DNA of 48,110 nucleotides from positions 1-48,110 of the forward strand of contig MFIU01000001.1 in the NCBI GenBank assembly GCA_001778985.1. The letters run 5' to 3'. Position 1 is the first letter of the stretch, and every line of letters begins with the position of its first letter. The DNA is from Candidatus Giovannonibacteria bacterium RIFOXYD1_FULL_48_21 (GTDB taxonomy: Bacteria; Patescibacteriota; Minisyncoccia; JACPKW01; UBA11713). The notes below the pieces were generated by a model that was not told the DNA's origin, did no database searches, and saw nothing but the letters and a program-made list of their open reading frames with translations. This document shows, piece by piece, positions 12,466-38,428 of this stretch. The position numbers and the translations under genes were made by a program.

Positions 12466-12507
12466 TGCGGGTAGGCGGAATTGAACCGCCGTCTCGTCCT
12501 TGGCAAG

Positions 12508-12726
12508 TCCCGCAAATTCTTGCGAGCAAAGCGAGTAATTGAATTTGCGAGGATCCCGTGATAATGAACGGAACAATTGATTATGTGTTTGAATTAAACA
12601 GTGCGAGCGGCGGGAGTTGAACCCGCGCCATCTGCTTGGCAAGCAGACGTACTGCCACTATACTACGCTCGCAAGAAAAACGGGATCCTCGAAAAATATA
12701 TTCGCTCCGCTCATTATTTTTCGGGA
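12508..12726. mobile_element. Composite insert: two inverted hairpin repeats (12508-12559, 12680-12726) flanking a tRNA-Gly
   Basis: Each arm reads CGGGATCCTCG-stem-(T/C)TCGCTnnGCTC-stem-CGGGA; the arms are inverted; a third copy lies at 36885-36931. Confidence 0.75.
12602..12672 (-). tRNA. tRNA-Gly(GCC), nested inside the interrupted tRNA-Gly
   Basis: Complete cloverleaf GCGAGCG...TCTGC TT GCC AA GCAGA...GCGGG TTCAACT CCCGC CGCTCGC A. Confidence 0.95.
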
Positions 12727-12768
12727 GACCATTCTGCCACTAAACCATACCCGCCTTTTTTAATTTTT

Positions 12769-12855
12769 TGGTGCCGAGGGGGAGATTTGAACTCCCATGT
12801 CCTTTCGGACGCTAGCTCCTAAAGCTAGTGTGTCTGCCAGTTCCACCACCTCGGC
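12769..12855 (-). tRNA. tRNA-Leu(TAG)
   Basis: CTAGC TT TAG GA GCTAG; long variable arm; encoded CCA. Confidence 0.95.
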
Positions 12856-12883
12856 GAATGTTTACGCTGAGCCAGTCGAAGTG

Positions 12884-12965
12884 TGGGCGAGGTGGGAGTT
12901 GAACCCACACGCCTTGCGGCACACGATCTTAAGTCGTGCGTGTCTGCCAGTTCCACCACTCGCCC
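12884..12965 (-). tRNA. tRNA-Leu(TAA)
   Basis: CACGA CT TAA GA TCGTG; long variable arm. Confidence 0.95.
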
Positions 12966-12977
12966 TCTCGCTTGGGG

Positions 12978-13049
12978 AGGCCTGGGAGGGAATTGAACCC
13001 TCGTATAAGGGATTTGCAGTCCCTTGCCTTACCACTTGGCTACCAGGCC
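12978..13049 (-). tRNA. tRNA-Cys(GCA)
   Basis: AGGGA CT GCA AA TCCCT; U73 discriminator. Confidence 0.95.
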
Positions 13050-13068
13050 GTTTCGGCAAAGCTACCAT

Positions 13069-13401
13069 TTATTTCGTTTTCTTCAAGAGGTCTTCGATTT
13101 TCAACCACTTCTTCTCGGATTCATCGAGCCGGAATTCCATCTCCGGCAAAAATTTGGTTTTGACTTTATCGGCCAAATGCAGTTTCAGCTCCGGCTTCAA
13201 ATTCTCTAAAGATTTTAGCACATTTTTCTCCTCTTGGTCAGGCCAAACCGAATAATATATCAGAAGGCGATCCAGCTTTTTGGAAAGCTCTGCCTTGGTT
13301 ACCACCGCGATGCCTTTTTCCGGCCTCAACTCTCTTTGCAGATAGGACGCGATTGTTTTTTGGTAGAGGGCGGCCAGTCTTTCCTGACGCCGGGAGTTCA
13401 T
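13069..13401 (-). CDS. rbfA: Ribosome-binding factor A
   Basis: RRQERLA...PEMEFRLDES; follows infB. Confidence 0.85.
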   Translation of the reverse strand: MNSRRQERLAALYQKTIASYLQRELRPEKGIAVVTKAELSKKLDRLLIYYSVWPDQEEKNVLKSLENLKPELKLHLADKVKTKFLPEMEFRLDESEKKWLKIEDLLKKTK

Positions 13402-14858
13402 GCCTCTTCGAAAATCTCGAACTTGTCTCCGGGCGCCACTTCCAGAGAAATCTCCACCAGCGCCCCGAACTCCTGCCCTTCTAAAATTTCCCTTACTTTA
13501 ATCCTGCCGCTCTGGAGCTCCAGAATTTTTCCCTCGCCCAGCGGGAAATCCCGGCGCAGGAGCCTGAAGCGTTTTTGCTGAAAAATTCCGCCGGTTTCAA
13601 CCTTTCCGCCCACTATCTTTTTGGAGCCGTCGTCCCTAAAAATTTTAACAATCTTGGCAGTGCCCAAAATTTTTCTGCTCGGCTCGCGCGCGCTGATTTT
13701 AGCTATTTCATTTTTAAGCCAGTCCCCGAGTTCGTAAATCAGCTCGAAACACTGGACCCGAACCCCGAAACGCTCGGCAGCGAGTCTCGCCCCTTTCCCA
13801 ACTTTAACCCTGAACCCGAGCACCACGGAAAGAGGATTGGCTGAAGCCAGCTGGATGTCGTCCTCGGTGATGTTTCCGACCTGGGAGCGCAAAATCGCCA
13901 GGGTTAGACCAGTCGCGGCGAGCTTTGACAGCTCTTCTTCCAAAGCCTCCAAAGAACCCGCGGCATCCGCTTTAAGAACGAGCGGCATGGTTTTTTCTCC
14001 TTCTGCGGTCTGCGGCCGCGGGCTCTGAATTGCACTAGCGACTCCCCTAGATAAAGCTTCTTCTAATTTTTCTTTAACCTCAAAGACCTGAAACGTCGCG
14101 CCGATTCTAACCGCTTGGTTGAAACCTAAAACCCGAACCGGACTCGAGGCCAAAACTTTCTCTATCGAATGTCCGTTAAAATCTTCCATAATTTTTGTTT
14201 TGACCGAAGCTTCGCCGGCCAAAATCCAATCCCCGCGCTCGAGCGTTCCTTCCAGAAGAAGCAAAGTGGCGGCCTGGCCGCGCTTGGAATCCAGATGAGA
14301 TTCTATCACCACTCCCGAAGCCGGTTTCGTAAAATCGCACTCCAAGTTCCCCAACTCGGCCAAAAGCAAAATCAGCTCCAAGAGTTCCGGGACGCCCTCT
14401 CCGGTCTTGGCGGAAACTTTGGCGAGCGGCACCTTTCCGCCCCATTCCTCCAAAATCACCTCCTTGTCGCCAAGTCCTTTTTTGACCCGCTCCAAGTCCA
14501 GCCCCGCTTTGTCGATTTTATTTAAAACTACGATGAAAGGGAGCGCGGCTTCCTGAATCACGGCGAGCGCTTCCTCGGTCTGGGGTTTAACGCCGTCGTC
14601 AGCCGCCACCACCAAGAGAGCGATGTCAGCCACCCGGGCGCCCCGCGAGCGCATCTTGGAGAAGGCTTCGTGGCCCGGGGTATCAATAAAAGTTATGGCT
14701 TTCGGCTGTTTTATCTCGTAAGCGCCGATGTGCTGGGTAATGCCGCCAGCCTCTTTTTCAGCCACGCTGGTTTCGCGGATTTTGTCCAAAAGCGTAGTTT
14801 TGCCGTGGTCAATATGGCCCAAAACCACAACAATAGGAGCTCTTTTGTCTTTTGCCAT
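13398..14858 (-). CDS. infB: Translation initiation factor IF-2 (no N-terminal domain)
   Basis: [30 protein letters not shown]. Confidence 0.95.
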
Positions 14859-14864
14859 GAAAAT

Positions 14865-15314
14865 TTATTTCTTTAATGCCTCTTCAATGGCCAGAAGCTC
14901 TTCTTTGGCAAGCTGGTACTTAGAGGAGGCGTTCTCCAAAGGCTTGGCGTAAATCCTGGAATTCTCTCGGCCGTAAAGGGAGGAGACGACGATTCCGTTT
15001 TTTTTCTCGTCCATCAGCGCTATGGAAAAACTCTGGTCCCCGCCAGCGTCCTGAAAAGGATTAAACCTGACAACGCCCACGTACTGCACCGAGCGCCTCA
15101 AGCGCCGCTCCACCGTTTCCAGATATTTCTCGATTTCTTCCCGGGAATTATGCAACTCCTGCAGCTCTTTGGCCACGGCCCGGAGAATGTCTTCCAAATC
15201 TCCGGCTTTCTTTCCGCCAAAGACCCGCCGGAGCCGAATTTCCAGATAGATAAGCCAGCCGCTGACGGCGAGGGCCAGCGCCCCGATAATATAAATTAAA
15301 ATTTGCTGATTCAT
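14865..15314 (-). CDS. DUF4446 family protein
   Basis: N-terminal TM, coiled coil, '[21 protein letters not shown]...YAKP'. Confidence 0.8.
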
Positions 15315-15339
15315 AAAGTAAAAATTTAATCAGACGCAG

Positions 15340-15426
15340 CGGAGGCGGGAGGATTCGAACCTCCGATGCCGTTTCCGGCATACCGCTTTTCGAGAGCGGC
15401 GCTTTCAACCACTCAGCCACGCCTCC
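15340..15426 (-). tRNA. tRNA-Ser(CGA)
   Basis: CCGCT CT CGA AA AGCGG; long variable arm; G73. Confidence 0.95.
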
Positions 15427-15472
15427 CTCATAAAGACAAAAGTATCTCCAATTTAGCAAAATTTTGTCAAAT

Positions 15473-15504
15473 AGAAAAGGGCGGTTTGCGGCCGCGCCTT
15501 TTCT
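15473..15504. terminator. Bidirectional rho-independent terminator
   Basis: AGAAAAGGGCGG...CCGCGCCTTTTCT. Confidence 0.6.
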
Positions 15505-15512
15505 TGAACTCC

Positions 15513-15617
15513 TCAAATGCCCTCTTTCGGGATTGTCTTCTTTAGTTCCTTACCATACCTGACAAACAAGTACACCCCGAAGAAGGCACAAGCGAGGAGG
15601 AAAAAAATATATCCCAT
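15513..15617 (-). CDS. 34-aa single-TM small protein (not in the ORF track)
   Basis: MGYIFFLLACAFFGVYLFVRYGKELKKTIPKEGI*; GGAGGT SD; TTGCTT-17-TATAGT promoter upstream; terminator downstream. Confidence 0.6.
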   Translation of the reverse strand: MGYIFFLLACAFFGVYLFVRYGKELKKTIPKEGI

Positions 15618-15678
15618 AGCACCTCCCCAAGAACTATTGTTATTACTATACACCGAAATAGAGAAAAAAGCAACCTAG

Positions 15679-15749
15679 TGGACCCACCGAGGATTGAACT
15701 CGGACCTCATCCATGCCATGGATGCGTAATACCATTTTACTATGGGCCC
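15679..15749 (-). tRNA. tRNA-Ala(GGC)
   Basis: CATCC AT GGC AT GGATG; G3-U70 pair. Confidence 0.93.
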
Positions 15750-15750
15750 G

Positions 15751-15822
15751 CGCCCCCAGACCGAATCGAACGGTCATCTATTCCTTAGGACGGAATTATT
15801 CTGTCCGTTGAACTATGGGGGC
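15751..15822 (-). tRNA. tRNA-Arg(CCT)
   Basis: ATTCC GT CCT AA GGAAT. Confidence 0.93.
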
Positions 15823-15841
15823 GTATGGTAGAATTATACAT

Positions 15842-16909
15842 ATGACTGAACATGAAAAAAAGATTACCGAGGCGGTCGAAAAAGTTCTGCCTGCGGTGGT
15901 TTCCATTACCATCACCAAAGAGGTGAAAGACATCACCAAAGACCTGCCGCTCGATTTTTTCCGCCTGCCTCATTATCAGGAATTTTTGGAGCATGAGATT
16001 GAACACGCGCCCAAAGACGACAAAGGCCGAATCAAGGTCGGCGGCGGCTCCGGCTTTTTCGTATCCAGGGATGGCTTAATCCTCACGAACCGACACGTGG
16101 TGATAGACAAGCACGCCGCTTACAGCATTCTCGCGCCCGGAGATAAAAATTACGAGGCCGCGGTTCTGGCGCGGGACCCCATCAACGACGTGGCTATTTT
16201 GAAAATAAAAGGGAAAGTAAGCGAAGTTCCCTTCATCAATACCGGCGCCACCAAGAACCTAAAGCTCGGCCAGAGCGTGATCGCGGTCGGAAACGCCTTG
16301 GGCGAGTTTCAAAATACCGTTTCCACCGGCGTCATCTCCGGACTTTCGCGTTTCATCTCGGCGGCGGCCGACGTCATGGGGCATCAGGAAAGGCTCCGCG
16401 GCTTGATTCAGACCGATGCCGCCATCAACCCGGGGAATTCCGGCGGGCCCTTGGTCAACCTAGATGGCGAGGCGGTCGGAATAAACGTGGCTGTGGTTTT
16501 CGGCGCACAGAACATCGGTTTCGCGATTCCGATTGAGCGCGCCAAAAAGGATTTGGAAGAAATTCAAAAATTCGGCAGAATCCGCCGTCCCTTCTTGGGA
16601 GTGCGTTATCTTCTGCTCAATAAATTTCTAAAAGAGCGCTTCGGATTGCCGATTGACCACGGGGCGCTCGTCATAAATGAAGGAATCCCGGGAGATTTAG
16701 CGGTGGTTCCCCAATCTCCAGCGGATAAAGCCGGATTGAAGGAGTTTGACGTCATTACCCACTGCGACGGCAAGGAAATTTCGGACAAAGAAACTCTGGA
16801 AGAACTTCTCTCCCAGCGCGAGATCGGCGACGCCGTGGAACTTAAAGTCTTCCGACAGGGGAAAGAACTGCCGATTAAACTAAAGCTGGAGGAACACCAA
16901 AAAGTCTAG
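15842..16909 (+). CDS. htrA: HtrA/DegP-family serine protease with PDZ domain
   Basis: TNRHV, DVAILK, QTDAAINPGNSGGP, C-terminal PDZ; start moved to ATG 15842 because 15815 overlaps a tRNA. Confidence 0.9.
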   Translation: MTEHEKKITEAVEKVLPAVVSITITKEVKDITKDLPLDFFRLPHYQEFLEHEIEHAPKDDKGRIKVGGGSGFFVSRDGLILTNRHVVIDKHAAYSILAPGDKNYEAAVLARDPINDVAILKIKGKVSEVPFINTGATKNLKLGQSVIAVGNALGEFQNTVSTGVISGLSRFISAAADVMGHQERLRGLIQTDAAINPGNSGGPLVNLDGEAVGINVAVVFGAQNIGFAIPIERAKKDLEEIQKFGRIRRPFLGVRYLLLNKFLKERFGLPIDHGALVINEGIPGDLAVVPQSPADKAGLKEFDVITHCDGKEISDKETLEELLSQREIGDAVELKVFRQGKELPIKLKLEEHQKV

Positions 16910-16913
16910 GCCT

Positions 16914-17150
16914 TTATTTTATCTCCAAAAGCTCCTTTAGCTTCACTTCGTCAAAACCAATCACTATCTGGCCGTCGATATCAATGACCGGAACGCCCAG
17001 CTGTTCGGTTTTATGAACCATCTCCTCCCTGGCTTGGGCGTCCTGGGCGACGTTATACTCGGTATATTTTATATTATTCTTTTCAAAAAGCGCCTTGGCC
17101 ATCCGGCAGTAAACGCAGGTCGGAGTAGTGTAAATTTTAACTTCTTTCAT
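16914..17150 (-). CDS. Glutaredoxin (NrdH/YruB-like)
   Basis: YTTPTCVYC, GVPVI, GFD. Confidence 0.9.
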   Translation of the reverse strand: MKEVKIYTTPTCVYCRMAKALFEKNNIKYTEYNVAQDAQAREEMVHKTEQLGVPVIDIDGQIVIGFDEVKLKELLEIK

Positions 17151-17163
17151 AGAATTTAGAATA

Positions 17164-17865
17164 TCAGTAGCCGCTAAATTCTTCAAAACGGAGCTCGTCG
17201 CGGGAAATTTTTAATTCTTCCAGAATTTTTGTCATGGCTTGGACCATTTCCGGCGGCCCCACCACGTAAAAAATGGTATCCCCGAAATCCCCCACGTTTT
17301 TTTTGACGTCGTCGGCGTCCACATAGCCCGCCTCGTCCGTCATTTTGGCGAAAAGCTTAAAATTTGGATTCTCGCCCGCCCACTTTTTCAAATCGTCCAG
17401 AAAGGCGGTTGATTTAGGATTTCGGTTAGAGTAAATCAAGACGATTTTATGCGGGAGTTTTTCTTCCGCGGCGTATTTAATAATGCTCCGAACTGGGGTG
17501 ATGCCGATGCCGCCCGTGATGAAGGCCGCTTTCTTCTCCGGATTTTCGTGAAGGACAAAATTCCCGCGAGGCCCTTTTACTTTGACTTTGGTCCCAAGGT
17601 GAATTTCGGCCAAACTGCGCTTGAAAGCCGAAGGCCTCATTCTGGTCGCCACCATCAAGATTCCTTTGTCATTCGGACTCGAGGCGATTGAGAAATGGCG
17701 CTCGTTCCCCTTCTCATCGGTATAGGGCGGGTTTTCCAGTTCTATTTCAATATACTGTCCGGCCCGAAAAGTAAAATCCGGCGCCGCCGAAGTATCGAAA
17801 ACAAAAGCTGTCGTTCCTTCGGCGACTTCAAAACGCTCTTTCAATGGAAAATTATATTCGGGCAT
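17164..17865 (-). CDS. FAD/NAD(P)-binding oxidoreductase (ferredoxin reductase family)
   Basis: GQY, RHFSIASSP, GGIGITP, YSNR, VGPP, E.F motifs. Confidence 0.9.
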   Translation of the reverse strand: MPEYNFPLKERFEVAEGTTAFVFDTSAAPDFTFRAGQYIEIELENPPYTDEKGNERHFSIASSPNDKGILMVATRMRPSAFKRSLAEIHLGTKVKVKGPRGNFVLHENPEKKAAFITGGIGITPVRSIIKYAAEEKLPHKIVLIYSNRNPKSTAFLDDLKKWAGENPNFKLFAKMTDEAGYVDADDVKKNVGDFGDTIFYVVGPPEMVQAMTKILEELKISRDELRFEEFSGY

Positions 17866-17902
17866 AGAAGTCTTTTAATTATAAAAAATATTCTAAAAAT
17901 AT

Positions 17903-17949
17903 AAAAGCGGCCTGTTTGATGTTTTTCAAAGTTGCTAGGCCGCTTTTTT
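17903..17949. terminator. Bidirectional terminator-like hairpin
   Basis: AAAAGCGGCCT...AGGCCGCTTTT. Confidence 0.55.
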
Positions 17950-18135
17950 AACGAGATGAAGAGGAGCTGAATAGAGCATTTTGCCGTTCCCAGTTCCCGG
18001 AACCAGTAAGTCCTTCCATGTCTGGCGATCGAGACAATACCAGTACCAATATTTGAGTCCGCCCTCATCTCCGTTACTCGTTTGAAGTGTGAGGAAACAC
18101 CCTAGTACCGCCGCATCGGGGCAACAAATGGGCAT
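17935..18135 (-). CDS. Hypothetical 66-aa protein
   Basis: Strong SD (AGGAGGTG) before the ATG; terminator at the 3' end. Confidence 0.5.
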   Translation of the reverse strand: MPICCPDAAVLGCFLTLQTSNGDEGGLKYWYWYCLDRQTWKDLLVPGTGNGKMLYSAPLHLVKKAA

Positions 18136-18445
18136 GCCCTTTCACCTCCTTTCTCTGAAGAGCCCTCAATTTCATAATAAACCTTCCCACAGAAAAGCGG
18201 AGTGGAAAACAAATGTTTTTATTCAAAACCAAAATAGCGCACTTGCTGTCTCATTTTTTGAAATTTTAAAGCTAAATGAGACAAATGAGACACTCCTTAA
18301 GGGTATAGGCCCGTGTCTTATTTTGAGATACAGCTCTCCTCTGTATTCTTAAGATAGAGTGTGGGCAGGAACGTTTCCGGGTTGGGACAGGAAGCTTACC
18401 ACCACGGTAAGGACATGGAAAATCTATTATGTCTTAGTAACATTT

Positions 18446-19150
18446 TTACCGAATGCCGGTATCAATGTCGATATTTACTTCAATGCTCTTGTTCGCTTCG
18501 ACGGTTATTGTTTTAGGAAGAGCATAATTGCATCCAAGAAAATCACAATCAGTAATTGTAAGCTTGTAGGAGCCAGTGGGGACAAGGCTTTGGAATCCGC
18601 CATCGGAACTTATTTTAATATAAATTGGTTTCCCCAATTGACCGCCTTTTTCTGGCTCAAGGATAATTTGTCGCGAAGAATAAGGATTTGGCACCGACTC
18701 GGGACATGGTTCAACGGGGCAGAGAGGACCAATGGCCACTTTGCCCGTAACCGTGCCTCTGGCCGCCTCACTTTCCCTTATCATTCTTTCGTAATCTTCT
18801 TGAACATGGCGCAATATTGCCTTTGCTTTTTTGGAACAGCCGGTAAATCCCGTTTCTGGTTCAAAAGGAAGTTCAATTTTGGCGTTATCCTGCAACTTCT
18901 CGTCCCAGTAATAAATCGTGTAGATTCTTTTTTTGGGGTCGAGGGAGCTGTTATCGCTTATCGGAAACTCTGTTCTTGCGCAATTTTCATATAATTGGTC
19001 TCGTGCTTGCATATCTCGTCTCATTTGCCGTTCTGCAGGACTAAATAAATCGATAATGTCTCCACGAAAAAACCAAAACAGAGAAAAACCAATAATCAAA
19101 ACAGCAACAATCCCAAAGACAATTATATTTACAAATCCTTTTGGGTTCAT
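18446..19150 (-). CDS. Membrane-anchored protein with a prepilin-like N-terminus and a C-terminal beta-sandwich (GPLCPVE...DTGIR)
   Basis: Likely start MNPKGFVNII at 19150; the longer ORF-track extension overlaps a pseudogene. Confidence 0.7.
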   Translation of the reverse strand: MNPKGFVNIIVFGIVAVLIIGFSLFWFFRGDIIDLFSPAERQMRRDMQARDQLYENCARTEFPISDNSSLDPKKRIYTIYYWDEKLQDNAKIELPFEPETGFTGCSKKAKAILRHVQEDYERMIRESEAARGTVTGKVAIGPLCPVEPCPESVPNPYSSRQIILEPEKGGQLGKPIYIKISSDGGFQSLVPTGSYKLTITDCDFLGCNYALPKTITVEANKSIEVNIDIDTGIR

Positions 19151-19154
19151 ATGA

Positions 19155-19337
19155 TTAAAATTTTCTTTTCTCAAAATTAAAATGCAGTTCGGCGTGAGCC
19201 GTGATCTCGATATTGCAACTTTTATGCTCCCTGCACCACGCCTCGCACTTCTCCGCCCATTCTTTATCCTTGTAGTGAAAGCCACACTCTTCGCATTAGT
19301 ATAGCTCTTTATTTTCTTTTTTGATCACTTTGACCAT
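19155..19337 (-). pseudogene. Small Cys/His zinc-binding protein with an internal TAA
   Basis: MVKVIKKENKELY*CEECGFHYKDKEWAEKCEAWCREHKSCNIEITAHAE...; the stop at 19296-19298 is one change from CAA. Confidence 0.7.
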
Positions 19338-19340
19338 AAA

Positions 19341-19460
19341 TTACTTAAAGGATTTAGCCAAAGCTGAGTTAAAAAGCTCTTTAAGTTTTGATTTTTGGGC
19401 GAGGAGTTGGGTTTTATAGTCCTGAACCGCGGAAAGTTTGGCAACGATTTGTTTTTGGGT
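19341..19460 (-). pseudogene. C-terminal remnant of a type I RM specificity subunit (HsdS)
   Basis: TQKQIVAKLSAVQDYKTQLLAQKSKLKELFNSALAKSFK* resembles the conserved HsdS C-terminal helix; no start codon. Confidence 0.6.
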
Positions 19461-19462
19461 TC

Positions 19463-19801: not shown

Positions 19802-19803
19802 AT

Positions 19804-20310: not shown

Positions 20311-20387
20311 GGTACTTATACTATATCAGCCAAAGCGCGCAGTGTCCACAACGCCAAGGGGCTGTATCTACTATCTATTTCGAAAAT

Positions 20388-21302: not shown

Positions 21303-21320
21303 GATAAAACGTTTTATTTA

Positions 21321-30287: not shown

Positions 30288-30324
30288 ACTTTTATCCTAC
30301 ATCAGCCTAAAAAGAGGTCAAATG

Positions 30325-30409
30325 TGCGCGGGAGAGGACTTGCACCTCCACGTCCTTGCGGACACCAGCCCCTCAAGCTGGCCTGTCTTCTAAGTTTCAG
30401 CACCCGCGC
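30325..30409 (-). tRNA. tRNA-Leu(GAG), atypical D and T loops
   Basis: CCAGC TT GAG GG GCTGG; long variable arm; T-loop TGCAAGT; D-loop AG instead of GG. Confidence 0.85.
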
Positions 30410-30413
30410 GTGT

Positions 30414-30818: not shown

Positions 30819-31474
30819 AACCTTTCTTTTGTAACATTTTCCAAAACATTTTTCAAGTCGCGAGGAAGTTCGGCTTCTAAACGAATCCGAGTCCCAGAGG
30901 GCAGTGTTAATTCCAGCGAAAAAGCGTGCAAAAACTGCCGCGCGAGGCCGGCGGGACAAAGAAACGTTTTTCTCCCGGAATAAAGCTTGTCACAAGCCAC
31001 GGGATGACCGATGGCGGCGAAATGCGAACGAATCTGGTGGGTGCGCCCGGTTTTAGGAAAGGCCTCAACGAGCGTAAACCCGTCCAGACGTTTCAGAACC
31101 ACGTATTCCGTGGCGGCTTCTCTTATTGTCCCCCTTCGCTCTCCGATGGCCACTCGCTTCAATGGCGTTTTTTTAGAGCGGCCGATGGCAAGTTCTATTT
31201 TCCCCTCTCGCTCTTTTATATTCCCTACCACCAAAGCCAAATATGATTTTTTAATCTCGCGGTTTTTGAAAAGTCCGCGCAGATACTCCTGCGCTTTTTC
31301 GTTTTTCGCAAACAAAATAATTCCGGAAGTGTCTTTGTCGAGCCTATGCACCACAAAAAGTTCCGGTCTATCTTCCAACGCCCAGTCAAAATTAACTCCC
31401 GCGGGCTTCGCGAGCGCAAGAATATCCGCGTCTTCGTAGATTATTTTTAAATCATTCAAGATACGCGTTATCAA
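30815..31474 (-). CDS. RluA-family pseudouridine synthase
   Basis: [24 protein letters not shown]. Confidence 0.92.
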
Positions 31475-31721
31475 CCCAGCACCAAATCCAAGTTAAAGGC
31501 GTGCCGGCGGGGAGAGGAACAATAATTGGATGGCCTGTTTTCTCGTAATGCTCGCGGTTATGGGCTTGGTGCGACTCGCAGCAAAAAACTCCTCCGCAGG
31601 AAGTGCAAAGTCGGAGATTCTCCCGCTCGCCGCAGACTCCGCAGGCTTTTTTCTCGGTCTGGGTTATTTTTATCTCCGAAAGATGCGGGCAATTTTCTTT
31701 TTTTATTTTTTGCGATGACAT
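31452..31721 (-). CDS. UBP-type zinc finger protein
   Basis: CPH...CGVC...LRLCTSCG...CC...H...H....HP. Confidence 0.8.
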   Translation of the reverse strand: MSSQKIKKENCPHLSEIKITQTEKKACGVCGERENLRLCTSCGGVFCCESHQAHNREHYEKTGHPIIVPLPAGTPLTWIWCWVDNAYLE

Positions 31722-31734
31722 TGAATTTAAGATG

Positions 31735-31806
31735 TGCGCGGTAGAAGGATCGAACTTCTGGCCTCGTCGATGTCAACGACGCGCTCTACCACTGAGCTAA
31801 CCGCGC
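31735..31806 (-). tRNA. tRNA-Val(GAC)
   Basis: CGTCG TT GAC AT CGACG. Confidence 0.95.
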
Positions 31807-31826
31807 AGAAAATTAAAAAAGTTTAC

Positions 31827-32035
31827 TCACGAGAGAACAATAGGGGTCTTCCCACGCTGGATCCCAAGCAAAGAATGGAATGGTATGTTATCAATTTTGG
31901 TGGCCATTATGAAATCATTCTCCGAAAGGCCGCTGATGGCGTGGGCGGTCAAGTCAATCCGTACCTTATTATAGGATATCAGAATGTCGGGGTGGTGGCC
32001 TTCTTCCTCGGCAAGCACAGCGATATTGAATAAAA
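31827..32035 (-). pseudogene. Pterin-4a-carbinolamine dehydratase fragment (N-terminus missing)
   Basis: LAEEEGHHPD...H..SGLSENDF.MA.KID; no room for the N-terminal half before tRNA-Glu. Confidence 0.7.
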
Positions 32036-32065
32036 AGAAAATATCCTATATTATAATGTAATTCT

Positions 32066-32140
32066 GGCCCTATCGTCTAGCCTGGTCTAGGACACAAGCT
32101 TTTCAAGCTTGGTACCCGGGTTCAAATCCCGGTGGGGCCG
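32066..32140 (+). tRNA. tRNA-Glu(TTC)
   Basis: CAAGC TT TTC AA GCTTG. Confidence 0.95.
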
Positions 32141-32143
32141 CAG

Positions 32144-33141
32144 ATGAAAATCCTAGCCATTGAAACTTCCTGCGATGAAACCGCGATTGCCGTGCTCGAA
32201 GCCCGCGAAACTAAAAGCGGAGTCGATTTCAAAATTCTCTCAAATCAAATCGCTTCGCAGATAAAAATCCACGCGCCTTATGGCGGAGTGGTGCCAAATT
32301 TAGCCAAGCGGGAACATAGAAAAAAACTGCCTATTTTATTGAAGCGCATCCGATTCAAACCTGACGCAATTGCGGTTACTTGCGGCCCGGGGCTCGAACC
32401 CGCCTTATGGGAAGGAATCGAGTTCGCTAAAGCGCTTTCAAAAAAATGGCGGGTGCCGCTCGTTCCGGTAAATCATCTGGAAGGACACATATATTCCGCA
32501 TCTATGCGGAATGACAAATTTCTAATTTCTAATATCCAAATCTTTCCGCTTCTGACTCTCATTGTCTCCGGAGGGCACACGGAACTCGTGCTTTCCAAAA
32601 AGCATCTGGATTATAAAATCTTGGGCGAGACCTTGGATGATGCAGCCGGGGAAGCTTTTGATAAAGTCGCGAGGATGCTTGGGCTTGGATATCCGGAGGT
32701 CCGGAAATTTCGAAACTCGCGAAAAAAGGAAACCCTGACGCCATAAATTTCCCGCGGCCAATGCTCCATTCCAAAGATTTAAATTTTTCTTTTTCGGGAC
32801 TCAAAACCGCTGTTTTATACTTTCTGCGTGATAATCAAAAAATTTCAAAAGCCGACGTAGGTGCCTCTTTCGAGCAAGCCGTGGTGGACGTTTTGGTAAA
32901 AAAAACTCTGGAGGCAGTTAAAATTTACAAACCGAAAACCGTGGCTTTGGGCGGCGGTGTCGCGGCCAATTCCCGACTTCGTCAAGAATTTTCTAAAAGA
33001 TTAAACGTTCTGCTGCCTGAAAAAAAATTCACCGGCGACAACGCCGCCATGATTGCGGTCGCCGGGTATTATCGCTGGAAAGCCAGAAAATTCGTCAAAA
33101 ATCATGAAAATCTACGCGCCGTCGGCAATTTAAAGCTATAA
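32144..33141 (+). CDS. tsaD: tRNA t6A37 transferase TsaD, with a 1-nt frameshift near 32694
   Basis: [33 protein letters not shown]; then [20 protein letters not shown] in another frame; GYPGGP is missing one base. Confidence 0.9.
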
Positions 33142-33147
33142 TTAGAT

Positions 33148-35286
33148 ATGCCTTCTGATTTCGACAAACCATACGATCCGAAAGCGGTGGAGCCGGAGAT
33201 TTATGAGAAATGGGAGAAATCCGGTTTTTTTAACCCGGACAAACTTCCAAAGAAATGGACTAAAACCTTCACTATTATTATGCCGCCGCCGAACGCGAAC
33301 GGCGCTTTGCATATCGGACACGCGGTTTTCGTAACTTTAGAGGATATCATGACGCGCTTCGAACGGATGCGCGGCAAAAAAACCTTGTGGCTCCCTGGCG
33401 CGGACCATGCCGGTTTCGAAACTCAAGTGGTTTTTGACAAAAAACTTGAAAAAGAAGGCAGGAGCCGCTTCAAAATCCCGCGCGAAGAGCTCTACAAGGA
33501 AATGCTTTCTTTCACGCTTGAAAACAAAAAAATAATGGAAACACAGTTGCGAAAGCTGGGGGCGTCCTGCGACTGGTCTCGCGAAAAATTCACGCTTGAC
33601 CCTGAAATCATCACAACCGTCTATGACACTTTCAAAAAACTTTACGGCGACGGCTTGGTGTATCGCGAAAATAAAATCGTAAATTGGTGCACCAAACATC
33701 AAACCACCCTCTCGGACTTGGAGGTGAAATACGTGGAGCGAAAAGACCCGCTTTACTACATTCGATACGGGCCGGTAACGCTCGCCACGGTGCGGCTGGA
33801 AACGAAATTCGGCGATACGGCCGTGGCCGTTAATCCCAAAGACAAACGCTATAAAAATTTGGTCGGAAAAGAGATTGAAATTAAAACCCTTTTGGGACCG
33901 GCCAAAATAAAGGTGATCGCGGACGGAGCGGTGGACCAGAAATTCGGCACGGGCGCGGTCAAAGTGACGCCAGCGCATGACCCGAACGACTTTGAAATTT
34001 GGAAACGGCACAAAGACGAAATTCCCGGGCCCCGCGTAGTGATTGATCAATACGGCCGGATGGACCTGCGAGAGTTCTGGGACCGGCCCAATTCCAAAAA
34101 ATATCACGGGCTTAAAGTCATGGAAGCGAGAAAAATAATGGAAGAAGACATGCAAAAAGAAGGGCTGATGGTAAAAATTGACCCGGATTACGCCCACGCG
34201 GTCGCCACCTGCTACAAATGCGGGACAATTCTGGAGCCGAGAATTTTGCCGCAGTGGTTTGTCCGCATGACCGCGAAACCATCGCTTCGCGATTTGGCGG
34301 TTAGGGCTGTTAAAAAAGGGGAGGTCAAATTCATTCCAGCGAGAACGGAAAAAATTTTCATGCACTGGATGAAAAACCTCCGCGACTGGAACATCTCGCG
34401 CCAAATCGTCTGGGGCATTCGCATCCCCGCTTGGTATTGTGGATGCGCTGAAATAATAGTTTCCCCAGACCCCCCAGCCAAATGCCCCAAGTGCGGCTCA
34501 AAAAATCTTGTCCAAGACCCGGATGTTTTTGACACTTGGTTCTCTTCCGGCCAGTGGCCGTTCGCCACGCTCGGCTACCCCAACGGCAAAGATTTCAAAA
34601 CTTTCTATCCCACGGATGTGATGGAAACCGGGCACGACATCCTCTTTTTTTGGGTGGCAAGGATGATTATGCTCGGGCTTTATCGTACCGGCAAAATTCC
34701 TTTCCGAACGGTTTATCTCCACGGCCTCGTTCGCGACAAGGACCGCCAGAAAATGTCCAAATCCAAAGACAACGTTATCGACCCTTTGGGCGTGGCCGAG
34801 CTTTACGGGACGGACGCCCTGCGCCTCGCGCTCGTCATCGGGAACACGGCGGGAAACGACATTATCATCTCCGAAGAAAAAATCCGCGGGTACAGAAACT
34901 TCGCGAATAAAATCTGGAACGCCACTCGCTTTGTTTTACAAGAAATCAAGAAATCTCCGCCAAAGGCGGAAAAAAGTGATAAAATAAAACTAGGAAAGCT
35001 AAAACGCCTCGTGAAAGAAACCACTCGCGACCTTGAAAGCCATCGTTTTCACCACGCGGCCGAGCATTTGTATCATTTTTTCTGGCATTACTACGCGGAC
35101 AAGGTCATTGAGGAGATGAAGAAAAAACCGAATCCGCTCCTGCTTTTGGAATTTCATCGAACTCTGATAAAGCTCCTGCATCCTTTCCTGCCGCACATCA
35201 CCGAAAAAATCTGGGAGGAACTTCCTGGACCCGCTGGCGGAAAAAATAAAAAACTTCTGATGATAGAATCATGGCCCAAGCCTTAA
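33148..35286 (+). CDS. valS: Valine--tRNA ligase (short, lacks the C-terminal coiled coil)
   Basis: PPPNANGALHIGH, WNISRQ, DTWFSS, KMSKS. Confidence 0.95.
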   Translation: MPSDFDKPYDPKAVEPEIYEKWEKSGFFNPDKLPKKWTKTFTIIMPPPNANGALHIGHAVFVTLEDIMTRFERMRGKKTLWLPGADHAGFETQVVFDKKLEKEGRSRFKIPREELYKEMLSFTLENKKIMETQLRKLGASCDWSREKFTLDPEIITTVYDTFKKLYGDGLVYRENKIVNWCTKHQTTLSDLEVKYVERKDPLYYIRYGPVTLATVRLETKFGDTAVAVNPKDKRYKNLVGKEIEIKTLLGPAKIKVIADGAVDQKFGTGAVKVTPAHDPNDFEIWKRHKDEIPGPRVVIDQYGRMDLREFWDRPNSKKYHGLKVMEARKIMEEDMQKEGLMVKIDPDYAHAVATCYKCGTILEPRILPQWFVRMTAKPSLRDLAVRAVKKGEVKFIPARTEKIFMHWMKNLRDWNISRQIVWGIRIPAWYCGCAEIIVSPDPPAKCPKCGSKNLVQDPDVFDTWFSSGQWPFATLGYPNGKDFKTFYPTDVMETGHDILFFWVARMIMLGLYRTGKIPFRTVYLHGLVRDKDRQKMSKSKDNVIDPLGVAELYGTDALRLALVIGNTAGNDIIISEEKIRGYRNFANKIWNATRFVLQEIKKSPPKAEKSDKIKLGKLKRLVKETTRDLESHRFHHAAEHLYHFFWHYYADKVIEEMKKKPNPLLLLEFHRTLIKLLHPFLPHITEKIWEELPGPAGGKNKKLLMIESWPKP

Positions 35287-35990
35287 CCTTTCAGGACATA
35301 ATGCTCGTTTTTTTGACCGGTTTCCTGCCGCCCTTGTTGTGGCTTTGGTTCTGGCTGAAAGAAGACCCGCATCCGGAGCCTCGGCGCGTGCTTTTAACGA
35401 GCTTCGTTCTCGGCATGACCGCAGTTCCGGTGGTGCTCTTGGGAGAATATCTTTGGTATCGCGCCGCGATTCTCCTGGGGGTGGCCGAGCTCGGAGCCAT
35501 AACCAGCCTCGCTCTTTTGTTCCCTTGGGCTTTTCTGGAAGAGGGGGCAAAGTTTTTAGTGGCCTGGCAGGCGGATTTGAAGCGCTCGGTCTACGACGAG
35601 CCAGTGGACGCCATAATTTATCTGATAACCGTGGCTTTGGGCTTCGCGGCCATGGAAAACGTTCTTTTTCTTCTGAAATCCGCGGGCGGAAGCTTATTTC
35701 TGCTCTTGACCACGGCCGACCTCCGCTTCATCGGGGCCACGGTTCTGCACACGGTCAGCGCCGGGGTGATGGGAGTTTCCATAGCCTTTTCTTTTTTCCA
35801 CAAAGAACACCAAATGCGAAACGTCTGGGGCGGAATCATGCTGGCCACCATCTTGCACACCGCTTTCAACGCCTTTATAATAAGGGCAGAGAGTTCAGGG
35901 GCCTTATTTAAAACCTTCTTCGCCCTCTGGACCCTCGCCTTAATACTTATCTTCTTTTTTGAAAGAATAAAAAAGCTAAGAAGCCAATAA
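35271..35990 (+). CDS. prsW: PrsW-family intramembrane glutamic protease
   Basis: PEP, EEGAK, GFAAMEN, LH...HTAFN. Confidence 0.85.
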   Translation: MAQALTFQDIMLVFLTGFLPPLLWLWFWLKEDPHPEPRRVLLTSFVLGMTAVPVVLLGEYLWYRAAILLGVAELGAITSLALLFPWAFLEEGAKFLVAWQADLKRSVYDEPVDAIIYLITVALGFAAMENVLFLLKSAGGSLFLLLTTADLRFIGATVLHTVSAGVMGVSIAFSFFHKEHQMRNVWGGIMLATILHTAFNAFIIRAESSGALFKTFFALWTLALILIFFFERIKKLRSQ

Positions 35991-36004
35991 ACTAAATCTA
36001 TATT

Positions 36005-36463
36005 ATGCCAAAAGACACTCGTTCTTTTTTTGAAAAATTAACCGGCTCGGTGAAACTTAATCGAGAGCCGGAAGAAAATAACGAAACGACTCTGGCGAAA
36101 GCTTCCAAAAACACCTGGCTCGAAGCTGGCGAAGAAGGAGAGCTCACGGTGGATGTCTTTCAAACTCCGGACGAGATTATAATTCAGTCCACGGTCGCCG
36201 GAGTAAAGCCGGACGAACTTGACCTCTCTATCACTCAAGACATGGTGACTTTAAAGGGCCGGCGGCAGAAAAGCCATGAGATTTCCGAAAAAGACTATTT
36301 CTACAAAGAATTATACTGGGGTGCGTTTTCGCGAAGCATTCTCCTGCCGCAGGAAGTGGACGCGGACGCGGCTCAAGCAACTATGAAAAACGGACTTCTC
36401 ACTATCCGTCTTCCCAAGCTCGACAAAACCAAGACCCAGCGGCTCAAAGTGAAACTGGAATAG
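36005..36463 (+). CDS. Hsp20/alpha-crystallin small heat-shock protein
   Basis: VDVFQT, WGAFSRSI.LP, NGLL.I.LPK. Confidence 0.9.
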   Translation: MPKDTRSFFEKLTGSVKLNREPEENNETTLAKASKNTWLEAGEEGELTVDVFQTPDEIIIQSTVAGVKPDELDLSITQDMVTLKGRRQKSHEISEKDYFYKELYWGAFSRSILLPQEVDADAAQATMKNGLLTIRLPKLDKTKTQRLKVKLE

Positions 36464-36477
36464 AGGCGAATAAAAAA

Positions 36478-36506
36478 ACAAAACCTCGGCCAACGGTCGG
36501 GGCTTT
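36478..36506. terminator. Bidirectional terminator
   Basis: AAACCTCGGCC AAC GGTCGGGGCTTT between convergent genes. Confidence 0.6.
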
Positions 36507-36508
36507 GC

Positions 36509-36658
36509 TTATTTTCTCAAAAATCTTCGCTTCACGTGTTCAAACATATCCCCACCATTCAGCAACAACAATATAACAATGATTGCAAACCCGATGAGAA
36601 GTTTGGCTGAAAGATCGAGATTGTCGAGCGAAGATAAATCGAGCTGCGGAAAATTCAT
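36509..36658 (-). CDS. 49-aa single-TM small protein (not in the ORF track)
   Basis: MNFPQLDLSSLDNLDLSAKLLIGFAIIVILLLLNGGDMFEHVKRRFLRK*; GGGAGG SD. Confidence 0.55.
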   Translation of the reverse strand: MNFPQLDLSSLDNLDLSAKLLIGFAIIVILLLLNGGDMFEHVKRRFLRK

Positions 36659-36787
36659 CTCTTCGCCTCCCTTCGTACAACAAATCTACGTAGAGCCTAG
36701 CAATGTAAAATTAAAGTTGCAAGATGTGGATAAATTTGTGCAGTATTCTTGAATTAGTCCGAACGCATTTCGGGAAAGAAATCCCCC

Positions 36788-36931
36788 CGCGAAAATTCGG
36801 AAAGGCGGCGGCTTGTACTGAGCGAAGTCGAAGTGAGCCGCACCGCTGACAATTTTCCCGCCACATATTTAAAATTTTAGAAAGCGGGATCCTCGATTTT
36901 GCAAATTCGCTTCGCTCATGCAAAATCGGGA
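36788..36931. repeat. Cluster of nested palindromic REP-like elements
   Basis: ACTGAGCGAAGTCGAAGTG inside GCGGCT/AGCCGC and GAAAATT/AATTTTC stems; CGGGATCCTCG-family hairpin at 36885-36931. Confidence 0.7.
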
Positions 36932-36947
36932 CAAGTTTTTCTTTGGC

Positions 36948-37739
36948 TTATTGTATTATCTTTGACCTTTTTCTTCCAGTAAATATTCCAATTAATACTC
37001 CGACGAATGGAGGAAAAACAAATATCACAAAGAATATAATCCAGTATGGGATTACCACCCCCAACGAGTAAGCTAAGCGCACTCTAAGTTCATCAGCAAC
37101 GGCCCCGATGGTTCTAATATCAAAAATCTTTTTGTACTCATCTTGTAATCTTGGCGCAGGGGGTATTTCGCCGCGCTTTAAGAATTCCGCCTGTCGGTAA
37201 TCAGATAACACCGCTGACTCTGCGCATATAGCATCAACGAACTCTGATTGGGTAAATATTTTTACAGACGTCTCTGGATCCTTGCAATATCCTTTAACAT
37301 CGTTTTCACATTGTGCCTCCGAGCCATACGAAAGATTTAATCCGATCGTGTAACTTTCGCACGCAGAGCTAGTTCTCGATCCTAATAAATAAGGATCCGT
37401 CTTTAGTTCTGTGATGCTCTTAGTAGCACATTTGTCTTTGAGGATTTTAACTCTGTTGTAATAAAACTCTTCCTGAGATTTTTGGTATTTACTAAAATCC
37501 GTGAATCTATTCAGACTATTTCTGCTCATGGTTTCAATAGCGCAATCATAAGGGGACCCGCTATTATCTTTGCACTTTTTACACTCAAGAAATGTTTTAT
37601 ATAATGGAACATTTTGATCATACTGAGCCAAGGCGTAATCGTGTTGTCGTGGCGCATAGGAAAATAAGAAATAGGCGGCGTAAATGCCGATAGAAAATAG
37701 TATGCCGAAGAAGAAACTAATTGTTATATTCTTCTTCAT
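36948..37739 (-). CDS. Hypothetical membrane protein with a Cys-rich extracellular region
   Basis: 263-aa AT-rich ORF with N- and C-terminal TM segments. Confidence 0.7.
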   Translation of the reverse strand: MKKNITISFFFGILFSIGIYAAYFLFSYAPRQHDYALAQYDQNVPLYKTFLECKKCKDNSGSPYDCAIETMSRNSLNRFTDFSKYQKSQEEFYYNRVKILKDKCATKSITELKTDPYLLGSRTSSACESYTIGLNLSYGSEAQCENDVKGYCKDPETSVKIFTQSEFVDAICAESAVLSDYRQAEFLKRGEIPPAPRLQDEYKKIFDIRTIGAVADELRVRLAYSLGVVIPYWIIFFVIFVFPPFVGVLIGIFTGRKRSKIIQ

Positions 37740-37769
37740 ATGAAAAAATTTTCTTTTTCTAAAATATGG

Positions 37770-38024
37770 TTAAACCCATTCGCCTTTTATCAGTTTTTCT
37801 TTTTTGACTCGACTCCAGTGTTTAATTTGCGCTTCGCGTTTTCTGGCTTCGGATTTATTATACAGTGGCAGGGATTTATAAACAAGCGAGAATGGTCCTT
37901 GCTGTCTAGCCATCTGCGAACCCTTGCCTAAATTGTGTTTAATTATTCTTTGATCGGGGTCTGGTGTGATTCCAGTATAGTAATAACCACTTCCAGCTTT
38001 AGCGATATAAACATACCAATTCAT
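37770..38024 (-). CDS. GIY-YIG nuclease (UPF0213/YhbQ-like)
   Basis: WYVYI...YYTGIT...R...HN.G...ARKREAQIK.WSR.KK; likely start ATG 38024. Confidence 0.88.
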   Translation of the reverse strand: MNWYVYIAKAGSGYYYTGITPDPDQRIIKHNLGKGSQMARQQGPFSLVYKSLPLYNKSEARKREAQIKHWSRVKKEKLIKGEWV

Positions 38025-38039
38025 TTCTATATTGTAGCT

Positions 38040-38129
38040 CTTCGACAAACTCAGAGTACTTCGACTTGAAGTGTTTACACTGAGCGAGCCTTCGACTGGC
38101 TCAGGCCAAGACGAAGGTGAGTCGAAGTG
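38040..38129. repeat. Stacked REP-like elements between the GIY-YIG gene and tRNA-Phe
   Basis: CTTCGACAAACTCAG, CTTCGACTGGCTCAG, ACTGAGCGAG...GTCGAAGTG; 25 nt identical to 12425-12449. Confidence 0.75.
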
Positions 38130-38201
38130 TGCCGCGGGTCAGAATCGAACTGACGACTCCTCGCTCTTCAGGCGAGAGCTCTGCCACTGAGCTACCGCGG
38201 C
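38130..38201 (-). tRNA. tRNA-Phe(GAA)
   Basis: CTCGC CT GAA GA GCGAG. Confidence 0.95.
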
Positions 38202-38268
38202 GCTAGAAAAAGTATAAGAAAAATTCTGTGGGCGCGCAAGGACTTGAACCTTGGACCTTCTCGGCTTG

Positions 38269-38376
38269 GCCCGTTAGAAATTTTTTGTGCGCGGTGAGAG
38301 ATTTGAACTCCCGACCCTCGCTGTGTAAAAGCGATGCTCTACCACTGAGCTAACCGCGCATATATTTCTAACGGGC
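38269..38376. mobile_element. CCCGTTAGAAA-family element carrying a tRNA-Val
   Basis: Perfect 13-bp inverted repeat GCCCGTTAGAAAT (38269-38281) / ATTTCTAACGGGC (38364-38376). Confidence 0.85.
38288..38359 (-). tRNA. tRNA-Val(TAC), nested inside the interrupted tRNA-Val
   Basis: Complete cloverleaf; TCGCT TT TAC AC AGCGA. Confidence 0.95.
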
Positions 38377-38428
38377 TGAATAAACGAGACGCTCTGCCGA
38401 CTGAGCTACGCGCCCATTTTTATTTTTG

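Follow-up and report, generated by a model that had tools for sequence, protein, structure and literature searches.

Inverted-repeat mini-cassettes carrying tRNA genes lie inside cognate tRNA genes of Patescibacteria

Two resident tRNA genes in a contig of Candidatus Giovannonibacteria bacterium RIFOXYD1_FULL_48_21 (MFIU01000001.1, 48,110 nt, analysed whole and called the window below) are each split by a short insert that is bounded by inverted repeats and contains a complete tRNA gene of the same type. We call this arrangement a nest, the broken outer gene its shell, and the insert a cassette. Scans blind to the shell recovered well over a hundred further cases across Patescibacteria, and two in Bacteroidota. 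The phenomenon is real and recurrent, and apparently undescribed. Taken as a whole, it is probably best explained by non-autonomous mobile mini-cassettes that replace the cognate tRNA gene of their host and lock themselves in. Throughout, G000 denotes the genome under study and C1 to C4 its contigs, other G and L numbers label other genomes and loci, and the repeat family names A, B and C were coined in this analysis.

Anatomy of two nested tRNA loci

A sequence-only reading of the window had described intact tRNAs inside broken tRNAs of the same type at a Gly-GCC and a Val-TAC locus, and this description held. The parts of the two loci are as follows.

12727–12754, minus strand: Gly shell (resident tRNA-Gly(GCC)), 5′ half; C27 is missing relative to the intact Gly-GCC genes of relatives
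12680–12726, minus strand: family-B inverted repeat, left arm, a hairpin unit like a repetitive extragenic palindrome (REP) with a TCCCGT end; it also bounds the Gly-TCC nests of G007 and G014
12602–12672, minus strand: inner intact tRNA-Gly(GCC) (ARAGORN; Rfam 72.7 bits), the sole Gly-GCC call of the genome
12508–12559, minus strand: family-B inverted repeat, right arm (sequence, repeat search)
12466–12507, minus strand: Gly shell, 3′ half, comprising the anticodon loop (GCC intact), T-arm and acceptor strand
38381–38415, minus strand: Val shell (resident tRNA-Val(TAC)), 5′ half to A35, ending in TA; identical to the intact Val-TAC gene of G003
38364–38380, minus strand: family-A cassette left end, a 4-nt flank TTCA plus a 13-nt inverted repeat
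38288–38359, minus strand: inner intact tRNA-Val(TAC) (ARAGORN; Rfam 71.8 bits), the sole Val-TAC call of the genome
38265–38281, minus strand: family-A cassette right end, a 13-nt inverted repeat plus a 4-nt flank CAAG
38229–38264, minus strand: Val shell, 3′ half; host bases C36 and A37 are gone at the junction, which is identical in five other genomes

Neither insert (Gly, 12726–12508, 219 nt; Val, 38380–38265, 116 nt) encodes a protein. Their inverted repeats measure 23 nt at 83% identity in the Gly locus (12537–12559 / 12680–12702) and 13 nt at 100% in the Val locus (38269–38281 / 38364–38376). Both breaks fall in the anticodon arm, as first read, but the Gly gene is cut in the stem, between positions 30 and 31, and not in the loop, and elsewhere genes are also broken in the D-loop and T-arm. 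The acceptor and T stems of the outer halves still pair at both loci, and the whole Gly and Val units fold strongly (z = −6.2 and −6.6, with none of 200 shuffles equalling either). Within the window, tRNA models are the only Rfam matches above threshold; its intron families give no match at E up to 1 there, nor at E up to 0.1 in the other nests of G000, and the intron mode of ARAGORN does not recover the shells. The read-based junction check, made at the Val locus, rules out an assembly artefact there. Logan contigs from four of four runs, belonging to four studies and none of them flagged as a possible source, cover the Val locus with 0 mismatches, and both of its junctions are bridged (X12, 38228–38316 and 38333–38483; X14, 38130–38316; X15, 38276–38900; X16, 38266–38474).

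Resident shells and foreign cargo

Sequence comparison indicates that the shell is the resident gene and that the inner tRNA is foreign, since Val and Gly shells resemble genes of their own family and the inner genes do not. The intact Val-TAC gene of G003, from the same family, equals the outer Val halves at all positions, the nest lacking only two anticodon-loop bases. Against a set of 41 distinct Val-TAC genes, the inner Val gene shares 64–66 of 72 positions with genes from other families and 50–54 with those of its own. Similarly, same-family Gly-GCC genes share 60–61 of 72 positions with the Gly shell and 43–50 of 71 with the inner gene. Both inner genes are complete and divergent from their own shells, with 49 of 73 and 47 of 72 positions in common. 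The inner gene is also the sole tRNA-like match of its anticodon in G000, in five of five Ala-CGC genomes and in three of five Val-TAC genomes tested.

Six nests in one genome

The genome G000 spans 714 kb, is rated 100% complete and has 45 tRNA calls (ARAGORN), with a single gene per anticodon except for Met. Six of these 45 genes are nested: Gly-GCC, Val-TAC, Pro-CGG, Thr-TGT, Thr-CGT and Glu-CTC. Orphan T-arms were searched for a 5′ half lying upstream that pairs with them; six of nine had such a partner (five of them nests, one unrelated), which added Pro-CGG (C1), Thr-TGT (C3) and Thr-CGT (C4). The flanks of all 45 tRNA genes were then scanned as well, adding Glu-CTC (C2), where the D-arm is broken and the cargo consists of a GIY-YIG nuclease gene together with the tRNA. 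The amino acid agrees between shell and cargo in all six nests, as does the anticodon, judged from leftover loop bases. The earlier argument that a match at two loci was unlikely to be chance is thus strengthened by four more nests in the same genome, and by an isotype concordance elsewhere that lies far above shuffles.

Breadth and isotype concordance

Isotype concordance was measured in several collections of loci, as the sequence-only reading had proposed, and nests proved common outside G000. The first pattern, a T-loop followed by the family-A right end and therefore blind to any shell, gave 63 matches, spread over 48 of 400 class genomes (control, 0). Of these sites, all of which were fetched, four lacked a tRNA call and four were G000's own, leaving 55, whose flanks were classed by nearest neighbour among 507 intact tRNAs with the locus's own gene left out. 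Flank and cargo agreed in amino acid in 43 of 55 (shuffle mean 8.2, maximum 24 in 100,000) and in anticodon in 34 of 55 (shuffle mean 4.9). Where the flank score was at least 50, the reverse-strand control reaching at most 49, amino acids agreed in 34 of 37.

The second pattern was independent of repeat family, requiring two D-arms and a T-arm at nested spacing in GTDB genomes (at least 120 stretches). Among the matches listed, 59 of 120 were nests with an intact tRNA at the second D-arm, 61 were not, and 54 of the 59 nests agreed in amino acid (shuffle mean 23.4, maximum 39). By record label, these 59 comprise 41 from the candidate phyla radiation, eight unlabelled, eight from Gammaproteobacteria or Bdellovibrionales, and two from Bacteroidota. 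The eight labelled Gammaproteobacteria or Bdellovibrionales sit in genomes of 0.6–1.3 Mb, and the two from Bacteroidota in genomes of 3.5 and 4.3 Mb among ordinary-looking neighbours.

A phylum scan with family C gave 52 matches, distributed over 37 of 401 genomes (control, 1). Of 31 matches fetched, in 30 loci, seven lacked a tRNA and 24 had one, with agreement in 17 of the 24; for cassettes with both ends it reached 13 of 13 (shuffle mean 3.2, maximum 10). In metagenomes, 122 matches in at least 120 stretches divided into 58 without an intact tRNA, 38 without the right repeat (for the most part matches that lie by chance before an ordinary tRNA gene), two duplicates and 24 complete cassettes. 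Isotype agreement is found across three repeat families and many isotypes.

All fetched non-viral sequence together held 121 distinct family-A pairs of at most 150 nt, of which 68 carry a tRNA, a share enriched by the searches. Flanks of the same amino acid scored at least 44 in 62 of these 68, compared with flanks of any tRNA in four of 53 empty pairs, and two of 68 on the opposite strand; in the six weak cases, inspection by eye reveals short remnants of a cognate gene. Among the 68, none is a clearly free tRNA cassette. In a viral collection, the part listed of the 36 stretches that matched the family-A pattern included no cassette, and the three-part pattern gave 0 nests of 16.

Several related arrangements were seen in the same collections. 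In L513 and L488 a Val-CAC cargo lies in shells resembling Val-TAC or Val-GAC, so that the amino acid is the same and the anticodon possibly differs, which pure complementation does not predict. About half of the GTDB matches (L156, L159–L161, L169, L171, L173, L179 and others) show a tandem tRNA 5′ fragment and a small hairpin before an intact tRNA; such arrays come mainly from Bacteroidota and DPANN archaea. The 5′ part of the nest, meaning shell half plus left repeat, is present as a tandem duplicate in L225, L232 and L269, which is what an unequal crossover of shell with inner gene would be expected to produce. Phage contigs (L275, L278, L283, L286–L288, L290) contain runs of short tRNA-like units without a normal anticodon arm.

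Repeat families and cassette ends

Family A is defined by the ends CCCGTTAGA and TCTAACGGG, common to the Val, Pro and both Thr inserts of G000. That genome holds 33 family-A pairs of less than 250 nt, 29 with other cargo and four with a tRNA, and all four of the latter lie within cognate shells. The end motif occurs in 56 of 121 class genomes (control, 1). Across 79 distinct pairs, cassette lengths are tight, peaking at 100–110 nt (about 105 nt), and the outermost base pair is complementary in 78 with one wobble. The first and last bases of the 4-nt flanks are complementary in 145 of 158 cases; the flanks are duplicated in 26 of the 79 pairs and otherwise mixed. A model of a 2-nt staggered cut, tried by eye on the Val junction, did not fit. 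Being short, non-coding, bounded by terminal inverted repeats (TIRs) and scattered in many copies, family A has the marks of miniature inverted-repeat transposable elements (MITEs) or non-autonomous TIR elements. Two copies in the window have no tRNA cargo.

5518–5616, no strand assigned: family-A element without tRNA cargo, of the same family as the Val cassette
47284–47410, no strand assigned: family-A element enclosing a second family-A element (47299–47393), without a tRNA

Family-A elements often lie exactly at start codons, in G000 (for example C1:118351–118455) and at L331–L348. These copies provide a short upstream reading frame whose stop overlaps the regenerated host start, and such insertions may be nearly neutral.

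Besides the Gly insert and the Gly-TCC nests noted above, family B bounds a Cys nest (G050) and, in G003, the outer layer of an Arg-TCT nest that is three layers deep. Family C, of the CCTGCCCGCC type, occurs in other lineages, as do several variants. The two repeat families of the window had been called unrelated, and their sequences do differ, but CCCG...CGGG termini are common to both, and termini of the CC(C/T)G type are found in all three families.

Movement, serial nesting and decay

Cassettes are shared between lineages whose shells are not. The Thr-TGT cassettes of G000 and G100, which belong to different families, differ at 2 of 105 nt (98% identical), while their shells are 71% alike and identity extends no further than about 6 nt from the cassette flanks. 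Pro-CGG and Ala-CGC cassettes are 87–91% alike across families, with shells 47–72% alike, and occur in both flank orientations. Junctions recur for each anticodon: in six of six tabulated Val-TAC family-A cases the left junction is identical and the same two host bases are lost, and the same junction also occurs with different repeat variants and different cargo. Between 0 and 7 host bases are lost at tRNA insertion sites, family-B and family-C insertions often being precise.

Three-layer nests were identified by eye at L065, L070, L082, L129, L140, L154 and in G003. Shells range from perfect to mere scraps. Among 42, a T-arm was detectable in 22, a D-arm in 29, and a pairing acceptor in at least 13, the last being a lower bound since the crude detector under-counts intact acceptors and missed the Pro shell of G000. 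Others have lost anticodon bases, T-arms or acceptor pairing. The suggestion that the outer shell stays under selection as a scaffold for expression and processing is thus not supported as a general rule, given that 20 of 42 shells lack a detectable T-arm. In the Val shell the stems remain paired because the insertion is recent, the shell being identical to the intact G003 gene.

A candidate mobiliser

The sequence-only reading had looked towards HUH or RAYT-like transposases, or nucleases, as co-occurring enzymes. The transposases showed no link to family A, and a nuclease was found between its ends. G000 has four Y1 genes of the size of REP-associated tyrosine transposases (RAYTs), at C2:104091, C2:98478, C1:231411 and C2:154242 (L291–L294), each with its own palindromic flanks; Y1 genes of the class are mostly TIRtron-like, each lying between its own palindromic repeats. 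Family A bounds none of the four in G000 and none at 35 loci of other genomes, and four or more family-A ends are not enriched in genomes with Y1 (20 of 75, against 7 of 45 without it). A Y1 transposase is accordingly not supported as the mobiliser of family A. Two family-C motifs near the Y1 gene of L378 are likewise not its terminal repeats.

A different picture came from two family-A elements of 275 nt in G000, whose sole content is an 84–90-aa GIY-YIG gene with its stop codon inside the element end; the nuclease domain fills the 85-aa protein between the inverted repeats. A protein atlas yielded generic GIY-YIG clusters only. At 18 of the 30 best homolog loci in 121 class genomes, G000's own included, family-A ends lie on both sides amid unrelated neighbour genes, and several others of the 30 are bounded by co-varying variant repeats. 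No other reading frame was found between family-A ends, longer versions having been sought in G000 and the fetched loci only. Four or more family-A ends occur in 12 of 17 genomes with this GIY-YIG clade and in 15 of 103 without it, a comparison in which kin are not independent and the nuclease element itself contributes one end. This element of about 275 nt is the best candidate for the autonomous partner of family A. We put the chance that the small nuclease, alone between these ends, is the mobilising enzyme at somewhat less than even. It may be just another cargo, since 15 of the 103 genomes that lack the clade have at least four family-A ends, G100 with its five pattern matches among them.

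Ten small GIY-YIG genes occur in G000; seven adjoin tRNA genes, four of these behind a 5′ remnant of that tRNA. One lies in the window.

37770–38048, minus strand: small GIY-YIG nuclease gene (PF01541, E 8.9e-13), directly downstream of the Arg-Val-Phe tRNA cluster

This gene counts as an associated neighbour, not as an established part of the cassette. At four other loci of G000 (C3:4132–4510, which is L323; C1:201677–202130; C3:6450–6918; C1:217822–218300), concerning Trp, Leu-CAA, Tyr and Ser-TGA, a tRNA 5′ remnant is followed by small hairpin repeats, a small GIY-YIG gene and an intact tRNA of like kind. The Trp remnant belongs to a divergent cognate gene with an anticodon break. These loci are a related replacement route that carries the nuclease along.

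Proposed mechanism and alternatives

Drawing on the anatomy of the nests, their resident shells and foreign cargo, the dispersed repeat families, the isotype match, the sharing of cassettes across families, serial nesting and decay, we propose the following course of events. A cassette of about 100–220 nt has a short terminal inverted repeat on either side of its cargo, and some copies would have captured a complete tRNA gene. On reaching a new host horizontally, such a cassette would insert, co-oriented, into a loop of the host gene for the same amino acid and mostly the same anticodon: usually the anticodon loop, sometimes the D-loop or T-arm, at a cost of 0–7 host bases. The resident gene would die, the cargo of the cassette would be made on the old host transcript and released by normal tRNA processing, and the host would survive; a host with a single copy could then no longer lose the cassette. 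The shell would decay, leaving the inner gene open to further insertion and so giving rise to three-layer nests. The inner gene is very probably expressed from the promoter of the host. A single sigma-70-like consensus site precedes the Arg-Val-Phe cluster, and the Val cassette has none inside it; as weak evidence, this suggests that ordinary end processing releases the inner tRNA from the transcript of the host.

The sequence-only reading had suggested that repeat pairs capture DNA and that insertion into an essential tRNA survives only where the cargo complements it. Co-orientation and sole-copy status are in keeping with this. What complementation alone leaves unexplained is that clearly free tRNA cassettes are absent among 68 while dozens of non-tRNA copies persist, and genomes with a second Val-TAC gene also fit it poorly. 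A fuller version would have a short local motif alone guide insertion, the cognate match arising purely from selection because other insertions into a single-copy tRNA gene are lethal and free cassettes are soon lost. It requires no new chemistry: G000 has one gene per anticodon, family-A tRNA sites are loop 4-mers resembling the element's own flanks, and co-orientation would follow from the need of the inserted tRNA for a host promoter. We nevertheless regard it as unlikely. Under selection alone, tRNA cassettes should be frequent at neutral sites and repeated hits should be rare, yet neutral sites vastly outnumber the cognate loop and are occupied in G000 by the 29 of 33 copies with non-tRNA cargo, the same gene is hit repeatedly, and nests occur even where the genome has another gene with that anticodon. 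These observations favour a homology step, such as the sequence-only reading had also considered. Selection for complementation must act in any case, and we lean slightly towards the view that pairing between cargo and target additionally helps to determine the site. Still more conjectural, and in our estimation doubtful, is the idea that a GIY-YIG-only transposon of about 275 nt and derivatives of about 105 nt, which use their tRNA cargo as a guide to the homologous gene, together form a new class of mobile element.

Other explanations fare worse. Ordinary homologous recombination needs more than about 6 nt of flanking identity, and it is within about that distance that the identity between G000 and G100 ends. 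This makes it quite improbable that a rare nested allele spreads by recombination after GIY-YIG cleavage of an intact gene, even though stereotyped junctions and near-identical cassettes across families would then travel together, ten small GIY-YIG genes reside in G000, several of them beside tRNA genes, and a ComEC-family match with two internal stops (C1:162941–163690), possibly a broken competence gene, is present. Such homing also sits badly with a G000 Val shell that is its own family's gene, with single junctions holding different repeat variants and cargo, and with related Ala-CGC cassettes in both flank orientations; the phage T4 nuclease SegB offers it a precedent (PMC2330249, as far as the accessible part of that source goes). 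An intron that is spliced out to leave a functional outer tRNA, with the inner tRNA as passenger, is very improbable: the insert does fold as a closed stem in the anticodon arm, precise family-B and family-C insertions are common, and G000 encodes RtcB, but RtcB is common anyway, no group I or II model matches the window or the other nests of G000, and tRNA splicing endonuclease (PF01974) has 0 matches in G000 while four of 14 control genomes are positive. Moreover, anticodon bases are deleted at family-A junctions, so that excision would not restore the outer tRNA; shells decay, and the inner gene is usually the sole intact copy. Islands are known to target tRNA genes and some carry them, and G312 has a large tRNA array, but remnants of integrase islands or prophages reduced to their ends plus a tRNA gene are an extremely improbable source. 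A direct repeat of the tRNA end is absent, the ends are inverted repeats that also occur at dozens of non-tRNA sites, cassette length is tight, the single tyrosine recombinase of G000 (PF00589, C1:77816–78289) is distant from the nests, and the viral matches listed included no nests. All the genomes are metagenome-assembled and tRNA genes break assembly graphs, yet an assembly artefact has a negligible chance of being the answer, given the divergence of inner and outer genes, the bridged Val junctions and the recurrence of fixed junctions in dozens of genomes.

Several points count against replacement by mobile, self-locking cassettes. The expectation that the inner gene is invariably the only copy of its anticodon stood in G000 and in eight of ten tests in other genomes, and failed in G100 and G312, where a second Val-TAC gene is present; lock-in is therefore not universal. 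No enzyme activity, circle or empty-site polymorphism has been observed, and the 4-nt flanks of family A match no single known chemistry tried. The search patterns enrich for tRNA-bearing copies, the first two sets of loci overlap in at least two cases, and kin and common cassettes are not independent, so that the shuffle comparisons are not p-values. In the metagenome set, agreement in 20 of 24 is matched by shuffles that also reached 20, the cassettes being mostly Val. In a search of sequencing runs, the RNA runs X18–X20 contained 0.05–0.07 of the words, and no RNA run exceeded that range.

Relation to known mobile elements

The cassettes fail the defining tests of REPtrons or TIRtrons, integrase islands, introns and SegB-type homing; in behaviour they resemble a cross between a MITE with a passenger and an island that restores tRNA genes. 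MITEs, REPINs and TIR families resemble them in being short, scattered, non-coding and bounded by inverted repeats, with dimers and copies within genes. For TIRs, the accessible part of Di Nocera 2013 (PMC3733652) gives the motif GGGGWSAS, from which the family-A end GGGGTGAA departs by one base. That part does not describe GIY-YIG or tRNA cargo for such elements. The cassettes differ in carrying variable cargo, including whole tRNA genes, in entering a cognate essential RNA gene, and in that G000 and the fetched loci show no autonomous partner with a known transposase between the same ends, although a MITE family would be expected to have one. Compared with RAYT and TIRYT systems, a Y1 gene lies between family-A ends at 0 of 35 loci, and a GIY-YIG gene does so instead at 18 of 30. 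Mobile insertion cassettes and insertion sequence derivatives such as MIC231 reportedly place element ends around a protein-gene passenger, with a target unrelated to the cargo; here the ends are non-autonomous too, but cargo matches target.

Integrative elements and prophages insert in tRNA genes and restore them. Like the cassettes, they enter tRNA genes, in many cases at the anticodon loop, and a working tRNA gene remains together with fragments, but they are kilobases long and form a hybrid gene from a duplicated end by means of an integrase. The cassettes leave both host halves dead around a complete foreign gene and have inverted-repeat ends and no protein. A case of tRNA-gene integration involving the 5′ fragment is described in the part of Sugahara 2012 available to us (PMC3293823). 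Introns of tRNA genes, too, interrupt the anticodon loop, frequently between positions 35 and 36, and decoding capacity is kept, but the cassettes have neither a ribozyme core nor a splicing signature, and rescue comes from a second complete gene. The proposed separation from integrase islands, group I introns and archaeal bulge-helix-bulge introns accordingly stands, there being no integrase, direct repeat, intron model or PF01974 match. In the accessible parts of PMC2330249 and PMC13096335, SegB of phages T4 and T6 is a free-standing GIY-YIG homing endonuclease of tRNA clusters, which likewise places GIY-YIG genes beside tRNA genes that spread or are amplified, and through its action whole regions pass from phage to phage by a break that is mended by homologous repair. 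In contrast, cassettes of 100 nt enter genes with just about 6 nt of flank in common and without co-conversion (one informative pair).

No description of the nested arrangement was found in the literature searched, to which subscription papers were largely external and some sources only partly accessible; this agrees with the earlier impression of novelty, without proving absence. The word 'nested' is not used in the accessible part of PMC4390854. Nor did the literature searched yield a report of GIY-YIG as the sole gene of a bacterial inverted-repeat element.

Genes for tRNAs are usually regarded as vertically inherited core genes. In a Patescibacteria class, at least one in nine genomes (48 of 400 on the pattern of one family) shows swaps for foreign tRNAs by 100-nt elements; G000 has had six of its 45 tRNA genes replaced, and some loci have been replaced twice. 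A minimal selfish element may in this way become indispensable without protein, toxin or splicing, and offers a testable case of cargo-matched insertion together with a candidate mobiliser. Standard callers report the inner gene only, which confounds tRNA phylogenies and integration-site analyses in these bacteria. Should the cargo-guided class prove true, it would represent a protein-free addiction strategy and imply steady, phylum-wide horizontal turnover of tRNA genes.

Further observations

ARAGORN makes no tRNA-Asn call in G000 and just two Met-CAT calls; tRNA-Ile(TAT) is present, and Arg-GCG occurs instead of Arg-ACG. The Asn gene may be interrupted or unassembled. In G312, L510 (G312:C1:440750–441550) is a tight cluster of at least seven tRNA genes whose spacers are repeated; it includes the second Val-TAC gene and probably sits on an integrated element. 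Within the window, two genes of the type IV secretion system pilin family lie upstream of the Gly nest (11036–11377 and 12050–12340), and REP-like hairpins with a common tail follow both the Gly shell (12426–12465) and tRNA-Phe (38040–38128).

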